The notes: generated by a model not told the origin, from the sequence alone. A stretch of 64,000 nucleotides of DNA from a virus (IMGVR_UViG_3300029846_000001); one strand, 5' to 3'. Numbered from the stretch's first letter, positions 59,990-64,000 are shown. Program-made: numbers and translations.

Positions 59990-60012
59990 GTTCTTCCCTA
60001 TTTTAATGTTGT

Positions 60013-60079
60013 GTGAGATCGCCGGAATCGAACCGACTTGCTGCACCATGAATCCCATAAAGCAAGTGCTCCGATCTTC
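60013..60079 (-). tRNA. tRNA-like element B (canonical T-arm gtcgg-TTCGATT-ccggc, acceptor-like pairing gaagatc/gatctca; short D-arm, non-canonical)
   Basis: Minus-strand T-arm plus 3' acceptor strand with a 5-bp complementary 5' strand; total about 67 nt; not foldable into a standard cloverleaf by eye. Confidence 0.3.
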
Positions 60080-60325
60080 GCAGACGGGAGCACTCTGTCT
60101 AAAGCATAAGAAAATTAATGAAGAAATTTTTCTCACTTACGCCATAGCATCTAAAATAGCTATCAGCACTATTTCTATGACAAACATAATAGAAAATATC
60201 TTAAATGCCTTTTTCATATCGCTATCTCCTCCTTTTTATTTTTTTTTAGTTCCACAATAAACTGTTCCGGCTCTGCTCCGACCTACGTTCCACCTACAAC
60301 CGCAGGCCTTAGCCCAAGGCGCCGC

Positions 60326-60586
60326 CTACTCCCCCTCTATGGCAGCCTGTTCGTACCTACAAAGCCAGTCTCCATCTACACAACTAACACTACGCGATAA
60401 TAAACATTTATCCTTATAACAATCATTAAAAATACACCCCTCACAACTGTAATCCTTAACTTCTTCACAGCTAACTACCTTAGCATATACTATACCATCA
60501 CCGTCTTCTATTCCTTTTACCCCAAAAATAGAACCTTCTTCCTCCTTACTCAAATCTAAGTCAGGCGCAAAATCATATACGGGCAT
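60326..60586 (-). CDS. hypothetical Cys-rich protein, 86 aa
   Basis: CEEVKDYSCEGCIFNDCYKDKCLLSRSVSCVDGDWLC. Confidence 0.45.
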   Translation of the reverse strand: MPVYDFAPDLDLSKEEEGSIFGVKGIEDGDGIVYAKVVSCEEVKDYSCEGCIFNDCYKDKCLLSRSVSCVDGDWLCRYEQAAIEGE

Positions 60587-60685
60587 GTTGGTTATGTTTT
60601 AATTGTTATACATTCCGATTACTACTAATCTATAGAATATAGTTTTCAACTCTCAACCTATTGAATTTTGTAGAATAAACTCACA

Positions 60686-61200
60686 TTATGCTGTTTTAAA
60701 GCACTGTAAGTCTTAATTTTGTAGGAAAACCCTACATAATGCTGTTTTAAAACGCTGATCTGTTGAATTTTGTGGGAAGGGACTATAGAACGCTGTTTTA
60801 AAACGCTGATAGTCTTAATCTTGTTGAATAGTCTTAATTTTGTTGAGCTGATAGTCTTAATTTTGTTGAGAAGGGACTATAGAACGCTGTTTTAAAACGC
60901 TGATAGTCTTAATCTTGTTGAATAGTCTTAATTTTGTTGAGAGGAAGTGCCCTATTTTGTTGAGAAGGGACTATAGAACGCTGTTTTAAAACGCTGATCT
61001 GTTGAATTTTGGGGGAAGGGACTATAGAACGCTGTTTTAAAACGCTGATAGTCTTAATCTTGTTGAATAGTCTTAATTTTGTTGAGAGGAAGTGCCCTAT
61101 TTTGTTGAGAAGGGACTATAGAACGCTGTTTTAAAACGCTGATAGTCTTAATTTTGTTGAGAGGAAGTGCCCTATTTTGTTGAGAGGAAGTGCCCTCCCT
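60686..61200. repeat. complex iteron array: about 7 copies of aagggactatagaacgctgttttaaaacgctgat, about 9 of agtcttaat(c/t)ttgttga(a/g) and 4 of aggaagtgccctattttgttgag (candidate replication origin or regulator-binding array)
   Basis: Seen directly; the core gttttaaaac is a perfect 10-bp palindrome; sits in a 780-bp noncoding gap inside the minus-strand early block. Confidence 0.85.
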
Positions 61201-61365
61201 CTCCCCAACCCCGGCTGATCCTCCGACTTTCCGCATAGAACCTGCGCTCTGGAGCCTCACTACAGGCATACGGAGAACGCTACTGAGCTATACTATGGCA
61301 TGGGATATGGGGTGTTTGGAGATAATATCATTCCATAGAGAAAATAGAGACCTTCAGCCCACGCC

Positions 61366-61551
61366 CTACCGTCTGCTTCTCCTATCAAGATAGATATTCA
61401 AGCCTATAATCAAAGCCAATAAGGAAAAGCAAAAGACCATTACAATATTATACTGATCCGGTCCGTACTCCAACATAGAACGAATACCAACCGACAGAAA
61501 ATAAAAGTCAGCTACTAATAAAAACCACCACATAAAATAAAAAAAATACAA
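61366..61551 (-). CDS. small membrane protein, 61 aa
   Basis: Two hydrophobic helices; ORF just above the length cutoff. Confidence 0.3.
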   Translation of the reverse strand: MYFFYFMWWFLLVADFYFLSVGIRSMLEYGPDQYNIVMVFCFSLLALIIGLNIYLDRRSRR

Positions 61552-61904
61552 TAAGTATGTCCGAAAATACGGGTATTATAAAACCTAACTAATTGATAAT
61601 CAAGCATACCTCATTTTTAAAAAAAATACAATAAGCCTAATTTTCAATCCATAGAGACGAAAAAGGCGGCATCCGACGCCCTATTTTGGGTCAGAAAACC
61701 GCCTAAAGTTTCGTTTTAGACCAATTTTAACGGCATGATATAGACAAAATACCGGCATTATATCCAAACTATCCTATTTTAGTTTCGTTTTAGACCAATA
61801 TAGCTCACATCCGCCGTTCACTCTCAGAATATCTTACCCTTAAATTGAAAGGATAGGATACGAAAATAGGGCTGCTCCGATATTCGGAACAACCCTACTC
61901 CTGT

Positions 61905-62111
61905 TTAAATACTGTTTATGTTTTCTTTCACGTATGTTCGTGATGTATGGACTTTGCGTTTGCATTTGTCCTTTCCTGTATCGGCATGATACGCTTCTTT
62001 GAGATCACGATACAACATAAATTCACGATACGCTCTTTTCCGCTTTTCTTTAGCTTCTTTCCTGGACAGACCGCGGACGTCTACCATATGAGATTTAAAT
62101 TTCCTTTCCAT
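61905..62111 (-). CDS. small basic protein, 68 aa
   Basis: Lys/Arg-rich (SRKEAKEKRKRAYREF). Confidence 0.35.
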   Translation of the reverse strand: MERKFKSHMVDVRGLSRKEAKEKRKRAYREFMLYRDLKEAYHADTGKDKCKRKVHTSRTYVKENINSI

Positions 62112-62130
62112 TTTCTTTATGCTTTAATTA

Positions 62131-62304
62131 TGATTAACTCCAGCGGTTAAGAGCTTCGATATAGAAACCCTCCGCCTCTTTATACTCACTTTCGCTCAAT
62201 GTTTCCACCGTCTCGATATAGTTACGCAATGTTATTTTTACGCAACTGTTTTTAGATTTATTGAACGCTTCAATTAAAGCGTTGATCATTGCTTTCTTTT
62301 CCAT
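62131..62304 (-). CDS. small hypothetical protein, about 57 aa (MEKKAMINALIEAFNKSKNSCVKITLRNYIETVETLSESEYKEAEGFYIEALNRWS)
   Basis: Hand-translated; below the ORF-track cutoff. Confidence 0.3.
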
Positions 62305-62320
62305 GCTATTATATTATTTA

Positions 62321-62384
62321 GAGGTTGCTCCGGAATCGAACCGGACGCGCATTCCTATCCTATAGAGATTTTATGCTACAACCA
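62321..62384 (-). tRNA. tRNA-like element C (perfect T-arm tccgg-TTCGATT-ccgga plus acceptor-like gcaacct; the 5' half cannot be placed, so a fragment or intron-containing gene)
   Basis: The minus-strand T-arm is a perfect 5-bp stem with a canonical T-loop; the nearest complementary 5' strand (tggttgt) is only 63 nt away, too close for a full tRNA; lies in a 570-bp noncoding region. Confidence 0.25.
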
Positions 62385-62881
62385 ACAGCCCGTAATTAGT
62401 ACGTAGTTCTTGCGTACAGGCTCGTACTATGTTGTTATTATATTTTCCGTCTGCTACACAACTTAGCCACAAATAAAGGCGATTGTGTCCTTGCGTTTTG
62501 ATACGGCACGTCCCTACATGGTAGGCTACATGCTTGTACCCTGTAATTTAATCTACAGCCTTGTTCTATTTTTCGTGTAAGCAAGTAAGACACGTTTCGA
62601 TCTGGAGATAAACCTCGTACAACGGCATGTTTTCCAAACTGTAATCACATACCTAACATAAACCATACCTATTCGGATAGTCCATGCAGTAATACCAGCC
62701 CTTTAATTGCCAACGGCAAGGGCAACGGTATATCTATCTCCAATATGTAAAATAACTCTCTATTTTGTCAGCTTCAGTCTAAAGCATACGCGGGACGTGC
62801 ACCCACTGACAACGGCGTACAGACGCGTTTAACGGTACGCGTCAAACCTTTGGAGAGCTTAACGGCGCTCTCCGTGCCTTG

Positions 62882-63421
62882 TTACTGCTGGTTGCTTTCA
62901 TGTGCGAGGTATTCACTTACACACTTTGCCACAGTGCGAATAGAATAAGATTTGATCTTAACAGCCACATAAGTAGATTTGTACTCGTCGGTTTCTTTTA
63001 CCAACCATTTAGTACTTTTTTTATTCTCCAATGATTCGGCAGTAGTAAAACCAAATGCTTTATATTCGCTACCGTAAACCACATTCTCAGCGCACCAATC
63101 AGCCGTTTTAGCTTCAATTCCTTTTTCTTTGTCCGCATTGGTATCCTTATATACTTTAGAGTATAAAGCAAATTTAACAAAGGTATTATCAACTTTCGGT
63201 AACATTTGGCTACACACGGCTACCAGGCTTTTTTTATCCTTGGCGAGGGCTGCAACCTTTACGGCGTATTCTGCCGGTATTTCCAAAGCCTTGCAAATAG
63301 CCTTTAGATCAGCTCCATTAGCAAATAGAGCGTTGTACAGTTTAACAGCACCTACCAAATTTGCAGCATTTTCTTTGATAACGGCATTCTGTAGTTTGTT
63401 TACATTTTTTTTCGTAATCAT
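62882..63421 (-). CDS. hypothetical protein, about 180 aa (start trimmed to MITKKNV)
   Basis: ORF; Ala/Lys-rich. Confidence 0.5.
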   Translation of the reverse strand: MITKKNVNKLQNAVIKENAANLVGAVKLYNALFANGADLKAICKALEIPAEYAVKVAALAKDKKSLVAVCSQMLPKVDNTFVKFALYSKVYKDTNADKEKGIEAKTADWCAENVVYGSEYKAFGFTTAESLENKKSTKWLVKETDEYKSTYVAVKIKSYSIRTVAKCVSEYLAHESNQQ

Positions 63422-63479
63422 ATCCCAATATATTTTAATTGTTAAACAAATGATATTCAAATTAATGACCCACAACGCA

Positions 63480-63830
63480 GGCAATTACAGATACATATAT
63501 AGTTAGCCCAACGGGTACACTATATAGGTTCACTATGTTAACTCGTAATCTCTCTCGATCACGACGCAAATATACGACAGTTATCAATACTACAAATATA
63601 TATGCTATCTTTTTTTTGTTAATTTGTATTAATTTCGATTATATTATCTGATTATCAGCAAGTTATAAAACGAACGAGAGCAGTGTTATACGCGTACATT
63701 AATATGTAGGATATATGCTTATTTAAGTGGCTTATAATCAATATGTTATAATAACACATTGATTATCAATAATTTAAATAAGTGGTTGATAATCAGAGAG
63801 TTTATATATTTGAGATAAAAACGCGTTTCC
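63480..63830. promoter_or_regulatory. AT-rich control region with repeated TGATTATCA / TGATAATCA motifs (4 copies, both orientations)
   Basis: Motifs at about 63646, 63760 and 63790 plus a degenerate copy at 63730; upstream of the first minus-strand gene. Confidence 0.3.
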
Positions 63831-63874
63831 GGTTTTCCAGCGAAGGGGGTGTGGGGAAGAAAACGCGTTTCGGG
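63827..63874. promoter_or_regulatory. two copies of the palindrome AAAACGCGTTTC spaced about 32 bp apart, in a locally G-rich stretch
   Basis: aaaacgcgtttcc at 63827-63839 and gaaaacgcgtttcggg at 63859-63874. Confidence 0.3.
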
Positions 63875-63900
63875 GGCGGGAGGTTCGTGATAGGTACCCC

Positions 63901-64000
63901 CTCTCTCCCATCACATAAACATCTTTCATATCCCTCATCACATAAACCTCTTTCTCATATCTCTCCCATCACATAAACATCTTTCATATCCCTCATCACA
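63901..64000. repeat. tandem direct repeats, about 58-60 bp period (ctctcccatcacataaacatctttcatatccctcatcacataaacctctttctcatat), running off the window edge
   Basis: At least 1.7 units visible; each unit is itself two diverged roughly 29-bp sub-repeats. Confidence 0.8.

Follow-up and report, generated by a model that had tools for sequence, protein, structure and literature searches.

What function is served by positions 63480-64000 of IMGVR_UViG_3300029846_000001, at the right edge of the 64,000-nt stretch of this virus that was analyzed (the window)? A preliminary description had offered four options: a replication origin, a packaging site, a terminal repeat or a regulated promoter. Judged from sequence comparison, the region is a genuine, lineage-wide, non-coding control region, and the regulated promoter is the only option with direct sequence support, in the form of an invariant -7 box, a set of palindromic boxes and a predicted structured leader. 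The predicted genome end maps elsewhere, and the resemblance to an origin is one of general architecture only. We consider the evidence evenly balanced for the more specific reading of a regulated promoter/operator region, possibly divergent, with a non-coding rightward side. A G-rich block and a length-variable array in the same region are real, constrained and unexplained.

The sole GenBank phage matching the last 1.2 kb of the window is csAssE-Sib (OR575929; 84% identity), an Epsilon crAss-like phage of the human gut from an uncultured group, with a record of 151,256 bp (PMC11054128). On sequence grounds the window is assigned to an uncultured gut Epsilon crAss-like phage of ∼150 kb. Two sets of relatives were compared, namely 107 IMG/VR stretches retrieved with a conserved 42-mer of the G-rich block, and a set chosen by a neighboring protein only, for which 130 stretches were retrieved and 80 kept (the protein-selected relatives).

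Candidate leftward promoter and palindromic boxes

The interval 63422-64000 is intergenic between two minus-strand transcription units. Read on the minus strand, it runs from the hairpin terminator of the upstream gene (seen in relatives) through a tandem array (array R), an 84-bp block that is C-rich on this strand and an AT-rich block with palindromic boxes to a promoter candidate, P(-), a leader and the start codon at 63421 (Table 1).

Table 1. Features of the control region and of the paired array L, in window coordinates
Feature	Position	Strand	Basis and remarks
Array L	60640-61196		Nested periods of 19/23/51/94/145/239 bp; cores TTAATTTTGTTGA, CTATAGAACGCTGTTTTAAAACGCTGATAGTC
179-aa gene	62882-63421	minus	Open reading frame (ORF) and translation; first gene of small leftward operon; function not assigned by Pfam/PHROG
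Predicted structured 5' leader	63422-63566 (∼140 nt)	minus	Alignment folding (alifold); ends at ATG 63421
P(-), Bacteroides-type promoter candidate	63567-63596	minus	Consensus pattern match, TTTG-N18-TATATTTG
Conserved AT segment	63601-63648		T8 tract and TTGTTAATTTGTATTAATTTCGATT; conservation 0.97-0.99, highest of the AT-rich block
Box B1	63649-63657		Exact motif, TGATTATCA; 11-bp palindrome CTGATTATCAG
Imperfect AT-rich palindrome, 66 nt	63717-63783		32-nt arms, 81% complementary
Box B2	63732-63740		Motif with one mismatch, TTATAATCA; left arm of the 66-nt palindrome
Box B3	63760-63768		Exact motif, TGATTATCA; 11-bp palindrome TTGATTATCAA
55-aa ORF WOZ57220.1	63774-63941 (L001 1938-2105)	minus	OR575929 annotation; covers the G-rich block
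Box B4	63787-63795		Exact motif, TGATAATCA; in spacer of rightward promoter candidate
P(+), -7 box candidate	63805-63812	plus	Consensus match, TATATTTG; 6 nt before the G-rich element
G-rich element, 84 bp, near-invariant	63818-63901	plus	Palindromes at 63819 and 63861; G-tracts at 63845, 63853, 63872 and 63878
Array R, left part	63902-64000	plus	Minisatellite, core CCCATCACATAAAC, G-free on plus; runs off the window

P(-) carries the -7 box of the Bacteroides-type consensus (TAnnTTTG, with a -33 TTTG located 19-21 bp upstream of it) in the sense orientation upstream of the 179-aa gene (63567-63574), and the plus-strand sequence GCAAATATAC at 63566-63575 is invariant in 87 unique relatives. 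Sense-oriented TAnnTTTG boxes are also present in other intergenic gaps of the same phage. Between P(-) and the start codon, the minus strand of the aligned leaders folds with an alifold energy of -23.3 compared with -8.7 in column shuffles (z -9.9), whereas the plus strand gives a z of -3.8; structure on the sense strand fits transcription from P(-). The leader also contains a 16-nt motif (TTTTAATTGTTAAACA/TTTTAATTGTTAWACA) whose only exact copies in the window lie at 60597-60612 and 63433-63448, each copy 10-11 nt away from the start codon of the gene that comes first after one of the two arrays in the minus sense. This motif may be a leader or regulatory element common to both genes.

Upstream of P(-), the 220 bp at 63596-63816 are 76.5% A+T compared with 62% for the window. 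The preliminary description had placed four motifs in both orientations in this AT-rich stretch. The stretch itself and three exact motifs hold, and the fourth (63732) departs from the motif at one position; the two orientations were a misreading, because the motif reads TGAT-N-ATCA, a 4-1-4 palindrome whose central base is free. TGATWATCA occurs eight times in the window against 1.55 expected, a count reached in none of 100 shuffles, and three of these matches (63649, 63760 and 63787) fall within 147 bp here. Box cores are conserved while adjacent positions drift (87 unique relatives), as at B4, whose core survives in almost all of 54 unique variants while the 7 nt to its left are hypervariable, with more than 10 forms. 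Exactly three exact boxes are present in 56 of the 80 protein-selected relatives. Several short palindrome copies, conserved cores and free flanks are what is looked for in an operator array, and we read the boxes as sites for a dimeric DNA-binding regulator. The conserved AT segment, 40-85 bp upstream of the P(-) start, is read as an UP-element or activator-like site.

Boxes B2-B4 are set in ∼27-bp units of alternating orientation that together form the 66-nt palindrome. This palindrome has a DNA fold z of -2.8 and alifold z scores of -6.5 and -4.1 on the two strands, and we consider it a DNA-level inverted repeat because the fold signal is found on both strands. An invertible promoter segment is ruled out, as the 87 unique relatives are colinear across the inverted repeats. 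An 18-nt element of the B3 region, TTGATTATCAAT(W)A(K)TTA, has inverted copies at 61586-61603 and 63759-63776 (16/18 identical), and a box-binding factor may also act near the predicted genome end, which lies to the left (see below).

The 179-aa protein has 334 homologues, with at least 87% identity among the 120 matches listed. Its gene is more variable (conservation 0.86-0.93) than the flanking non-coding DNA. Pfam and PHROG searches with the operon proteins, this one included, and with candidate replication and partition proteins gave no informative match, and an AlphaFold model built on a shallow alignment was unusable (predicted local distance difference test score 37.7). The preliminary description had called the gene the first on the minus strand; it does not begin the minus-strand block, since minus-strand genes of csAssE-Sib extend for a further ∼15 kb to the right of the region.

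The G-rich block, array R and a possible rightward unit

A second -7 box, P(+), faces right from the far side of the AT-rich block. Of 54 unique variants, 32 have a perfect TAnnTTTG at the same offset, nn being AT, GG, TG or AG, which makes P(+) a suggestive candidate that is weaker than the leftward promoter.

P(+) is followed by the G-rich block (39% G at 63817-63901), in which the preliminary description had noted two palindromes. These are present beyond chance: the 10-bp palindrome AAACGCGTTT is expected 0.06 times, and no shuffle of 100 contains it twice. A 12-mer, AAAACGCGTTTC, is directly repeated 42 bp apart in the same segment. Only five columns vary inside the block among 75 unique versions, and in the protein-selected relatives conservation at 63825-63900 is 0.98-0.99, the anchor GGAGGTTCGTG...CCCC is found in 80/80 and both palindromes in 73/80. 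RNA structure was looked for and not found: the block has no significant fold (DNA z 0.07 and -1.2; alignment folding 0.1 and -3.7) and covariation was absent from the 75 unique versions. The G-tracts (G5, G4, G5 and G3) are separated by loops of 3, 15 and 1 nt, the central loop being long for a G-quadruplex, for which four tracts of G3 or more with short loops are sought. A coding explanation is similarly doubtful: WOZ57220.1 is probably not a gene, since its start lies inside the variable array and no period-3 or codon-like variation was found across the ORF in unique relatives. The 27-35-bp array units shift the reading frame of ORFs of this type. When viral contigs were scanned for the palindrome pair, it was found in the same lineage and in unrelated high-GC phages only. 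Two of the latter (IMG/VR contigs L204 and L211) contain GAAACGCGTTTC two to three times within ∼60 bp, seemingly in a coding region, followed by a GQGQ-type low-complexity stretch; these copies could represent origin iterons lying within a replication gene in phages unrelated to this lineage.

Array R begins directly after the block. The tandem repeats of ∼58 bp reported in the preliminary description are there and do run past the window, with a different unit length: 27- and 31-bp units alternate (58 = 27 + 31) around a core, CATCACATAAAC, that is absent from the rest of the window. Over these 99 nt the closest contig (L114/L031) shows no differences, and it carries the array at least 59 nt further, to six cores or more, before stopping inside it, so that the array length of the window's own genome is a lower bound. 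Among relatives, 165 of 204 anchor-bearing loci span the array completely. The 81 unique complete arrays measure 72-479 bp (median 140), with 1-14 copies of the core ACAYAAA (mode 3) and a unit spacing that is continuous between 27 and 35 bp, without a preferred phase. Their plus strand is 36% C and 1.0% G, and relatives with a single core retain a C-rich, G-poor tract. Stop codons occur in every unit in all three minus frames, and the plus frames meet TAA as the 27- and 31-bp units shift frame (direct reading). The composition and length match those sought in a Rho utilization (rut) tract (∼70-80 nt or more, C-rich, G-poor and unstructured) for a rightward transcript only.

In the regulated promoter/operator reading, the boxes would act as operators or activator sites for a regulator, and the second, weaker promoter (TAnnTTTG at 63805), with B4 in its spacer, would fire rightward, making the whole a divergent promoter/operator module. 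Transcription to the right would yield a non-coding RNA with a G-rich leader and then at least ∼70 nt of unstructured, C-rich sequence devoid of G, which could be Rho-loading-like or sponge-like, and would end at the hairpin terminator of the neighboring gene. Selection would keep the composition and minimum length of the array, not its copy number.

Several observations weigh against this reading. The evidence for P(-) and P(+) alike consists of consensus matches, and for the full -33/-7 pattern the window has 7 matches vs. 3.2 expected, a marginal enrichment. The -33 TTTG of P(-), 18 bp upstream of the -7 box in the window, is not conserved and reads TATG in many relatives. P(+) is imperfect in 22 of the 54 unique variants and its -33 is only TTG, 17 bp upstream. 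Beyond the array, the hairpins are chiefly terminators of the minus strand, the commonest type having a weak T-run on the plus strand. A cognate regulator was not found, as Pfam and PHROG detected no helix-turn-helix, ribbon-helix-helix or other DNA-binding family in the operon proteins and their neighbors. Conservation alone is weak evidence because the whole 2.7-kb neighborhood is ∼95% conserved, and the promoter model does not account for the near-invariance of the G-rich block.

Would an ordinary promoter suffice, with the array as a neutral, slippage-prone minisatellite and the G-block as conserved upstream regulatory DNA or a backup read-through insulator? Copy number does vary to an extreme degree between genomes otherwise 85-96% identical, and gene content to the right of the array varies, with some deletions ending in the array, as expected at a recombination-prone spot. 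At this right border, relatives (e.g., L001, L005, L117, L198 and L200) differ: a phrog_1365 gene is present or absent, NrnA follows at once, other genes are inserted, or a deletion ends in the array. On this comparison the array border behaves as a recombination or module-exchange point. Cultured distant relatives also have no such arrays: no intergenic array occurs in 49 kb of the corresponding side of phi17:2 (an Epsilon-group phage whose TerL is 33% identical), and the long non-coding RNA region of phi14:2 has no comparable tandem array. However, avoidance of G on the plus strand extends to variable unit positions and to decayed arrays, no complete array is shorter than 72 bp and the 84-bp block is more invariant than any nearby coding sequence. 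The preliminary description had listed a lack of conservation of the repeats in relatives among the observations that would refute it; the repeats are conserved, the array following the anchor in the relatives read and the anchor being universal in the protein-selected set. We regard the plain promoter with a neutral array as rather unlikely.

A replication origin is possible but unsupported, and we judge it unlikely. The array units would be iterons for a phage initiator beside an AT-rich unwinding region, or rightward transcription through the G-block would generate a persistent R-loop, with G-rich RNA on the C-rich template and a displaced strand able to form a G-quadruplex, that primes or loads host replication as in ColE1 or T4 origins. 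The architecture is appropriate in outline, with direct repeats, a GC-rich block, a 76% AT block bearing the 66-nt palindrome, and four conserved G-tracts on the non-template strand immediately after a candidate promoter, all within 60-64 kb, the most non-coding part of the window. Epsilon crAss-like phages moreover have no DNA polymerase and a minimal replication set (PMC7886860; PMC11054128). The details fit less well. Nine of the 81 unique arrays have one or two cores, the continuous spacing is unlike that of phased iterons, and 40% of variants have an imperfect rightward promoter. Neither beside the region nor among the annotated "replication" proteins tested was a Rep, DnaA or O-like protein identified, and on inspection neither the array core nor the boxes agree with the DnaA box TTATCCACA at more than 7/9 positions. 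In OR575929 the sign of the GC skew switches only where gene strand does (∼17.4 and ∼110.8 kb); at the region itself there is a shift in magnitude only, from about -0.32 on the left to -0.17 on the right, and gene strand confounds GC skew as an indicator of an origin.

A bolder version of the regulated promoter/operator reading, to which we attach little probability, is that P(+) is real and that the G-block and array form a dedicated non-coding unit, either (a) an R-loop- or G-quadruplex-primed origin or (b) a source of repetitive, unstructured, C-rich RNA for loading or titrating a host factor, for example Rho. If (a) were true, a crAss-like lineage without its own DNA polymerase would recruit the host replisome via a transcription-primed origin; if (b), array length would be a rapidly evolving dosage knob. 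In either case the unit, with array L beyond the predicted genome end, would constitute a control module near the genome end not described before in Epsilon crAss-like phages.

Genome context and the predicted genome end

The OR575929 annotation comprises one minus-strand block from ∼110.9 kb across the record end and start to ∼17.4 kb, the remainder being a plus-strand structural block. Positions 63480-64000 are homologous to ∼1600-2170 of this record, in the middle of the minus block and not at its edge. On the right in csAssE-Sib are a hypothetical gene and genes for an NrnA-like phosphodiesterase, a polynucleotide kinase, tRNAs, a dUTPase, SSB and a sliding clamp; on the left, the 179-aa gene is followed by a long run of small genes without assigned function and then by replication genes. 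The NrnA-like neighbor has a 37%-identical homologue on another phage contig (the protein is found on contigs of up to 151,671 bp); the context of the homologue differs, and tracing the locus into distant relatives through this gene failed.

Base 1 of csAssE-Sib was set by PhageTerm (p = 1.5e-22) and reported as a single start point, not as a terminal repeat (PMC11054128). Its counterpart in the window is position ∼61823. The small operon that starts at 63421 is closed by a hairpin terminator (61867-61898), and this counterpart falls ∼44 nt past it. The terminus and terminal-repeat options of the preliminary description are not borne out, as the start of this one relative maps 1.66 kb to the left of the region and 2.08 kb from the repeats of array R. 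Mapped in this way, the region is not the genome end and appears as part of an end-proximal module bounded by two arrays.

The second of these, array L, lies 2.7 kb to the left of array R, directly upstream (in the minus sense) of a gene at 60586-60326 (minus), and is followed by a conserved C-rich element at 61190-61260. It is also variable, with 62 unique versions of 106-584 bp of which that of the window is the longest, has a strand bias that is weak across relatives, and contains six plus-strand TAATTTTG (-7-like) boxes pointing away from the flanking genes. Arrays L and R are the only two intergenic arrays in the window, and they bracket a 2.7-kb segment that is also found free-standing in dozens of Logan contigs of 2.7-2.8 kb encoding the 179-aa protein. 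According to the contig ranges of the 80 protein-selected IMG/VR contigs, 13 stop 510-702 nt upstream of the start of the 179-aa gene, within array R, which begins at 481 nt on this scale, and ∼13 end ∼1550-1850 nt downstream of this gene, in array L. The clustering of contig ends in the arrays stems from the breakage of short-read assemblies at tandem repeats and has no bearing on physical ends. With ∼1 in 6 contigs broken at each array, this explains fragmented or mis-started genomes of the lineage.

Both arrays could border a terminal repeat or terminase recognition region, with the palindromes as terminase or end-binding sites, and their placement around the csAssE-Sib start homologue, together with the inverted 18-nt copy of the B3 region near this predicted terminus, favors such a genome-end or packaging element. 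We nevertheless find it quite improbable, given the distance of 1.66-2.08 kb to the predicted terminus, the report of a single start, terminase genes ∼20 kb away, and contig ends that reflect assembly breakage. The arrays and their flanks also share neither significant similarity nor a 6-mer; mirror symmetry or a common Chi-like motif was accordingly rejected (alignment score 17-18 compared with 15.9±2.2 in shuffles). An indirect link to genome ends may exist, because array R is one of the two arrays bracketing the terminus-bearing segment.

A centromere-like partition site of a plasmid-like episome, comparable to F sopC or R1 parC and with units that bind a ParB/ParR-type protein, is highly improbable: variable-number tandem arrays beside a promoter recall sopC/parC, and a plasmid-like lifestyle has been proposed for the prototypic crAssphage (PMC10983915), but no ParA, ParB or ParR-like protein was found among the tested candidates and no bacterial genome carries the element except for one 3.9-kb contig. 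That contig (L215, NZ_DXLG01000138.1), in a metagenome-assembled genome of Veillonella, was the single match when the G-rich anchor was scanned against 185,579 bacterial and archaeal genomes, which otherwise contained no sign of a prophage or host copy. It is a fragment of the same phage lineage ending in array R, and its assignment to Veillonella is probably a binning error rather than host evidence.

The segment between the arrays has further features. A long conserved non-coding stretch at 61200-61900, around the predicted start, contains a direct repeat (AGTTTCGTTTTAGACCAAT at 61708-61726 and 61780-61798) and is a candidate pac or terminase-recognition region. Two conserved non-coding stretches of the minus strand have strong alifold signals that are far weaker on the plus strand (62600-62881, z -18.7 vs. 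column shuffles; 61640-61905, z -9.9) and are candidates for structured non-coding RNAs inside and after the small operon, without an Rfam match. A plus-strand non-coding RNA in 61197-61905 was rejected, the structure signal being on the minus strand. On the minus strand at ∼62320-62400, in 93-99% conserved non-coding DNA, a tRNA-like fragment with a T-arm (GGTTCGATTCCGG) and an acceptor-like end could be a degenerate tRNA or tRNA-derived element; it was not called by ARAGORN or Rfam. Over the wider interval, ARAGORN called no tRNA in 60-64 kb, and the Rfam 15 covariance models gave no match at E≤1 in 60000-64000. A 56-aa gene at 62134-62304, with a weak DUF6241 match, is missing from ∼18% of aligned relatives (window 62100-62300).

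Significance and comparison with known systems

Epsilon crAss-like phages are abundant in the human gut, where they account for 13-18% of crAss-like phage reads, and are without a DNA polymerase and without the crAss transcription gene block (PMC7886860), although the csAssE-Sib paper nevertheless analyzes an RNA polymerase (PMC11054128). A term search of the latter description found no mention of promoters, intergenic features or repeats other than those of diversity-generating retroelements. The region and its twin array form the densest cluster of conserved non-coding signals in the window, beside its only predicted genome end, and for these reasons are the obvious places to seek early promoters, an origin and regulator sites. 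Array R could also be used as a strain-typing marker.

Among known systems, the short-repeat arrays SRL and SRR flank the terminal repeat of T7. The present locus is similar in having two different short-repeat arrays around a segment with a predicted genome start; here, however, the bracketed 2.7-kb segment carries an operon, the arrays lie 0.6 and 2.1 kb from the predicted end, and a terminal repeat is a candidate only. Iteron origins (lambda ori, P1 oriR and plasmid iterons) are comparable in their direct repeats with a conserved core of ∼14 bp near AT-rich and GC-rich segments. Their repeats are fixed and phased, in contrast to the 1-14 copies and 27-35-bp spacing seen here, where in addition the 84-bp G-block separates repeats from AT-rich DNA and no initiator gene was found. 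R-loop-primed origins such as ColE1 RNA II, T4 oriF/oriG and mitochondrial CSBII have in common with this region a promoter, here a candidate, followed by G-tracts on the non-template strand.

Abundant non-coding RNAs are produced by the crAss-like phage phi14:2 from long intergenic stretches of its early region (bioRxiv 10.1101/2020.03.07.982082). Long conserved non-coding stretches among small early-type genes are also found here, including the predicted structured sense-strand segments at 62600-62881 and 61640-61905, although the sequences are dissimilar and the array has no counterpart there. Array R, if read rightward, a direction that is hypothetical, resembles rut tracts and CsrB-like sponge RNAs in that its product would be repetitive and unstructured, at least ∼70 nt long, 36% C and 1% G.

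The closest analogy for the regulated promoter/operator reading is the lambda PR/PRM switch with OR1-3. The present locus, known from sequence alone, differs in that it has no flanking repressor or Cro-like gene, its rightward unit is non-coding, and most boxes lie 75-230 bp upstream of the leftward promoter, not over it. It is similar in its two outward promoter candidates, here of Bacteroides type, ∼240 bp apart, with palindromic sites between and within them, one in a promoter spacer, and in the conserved cores and free flanks of these sites.

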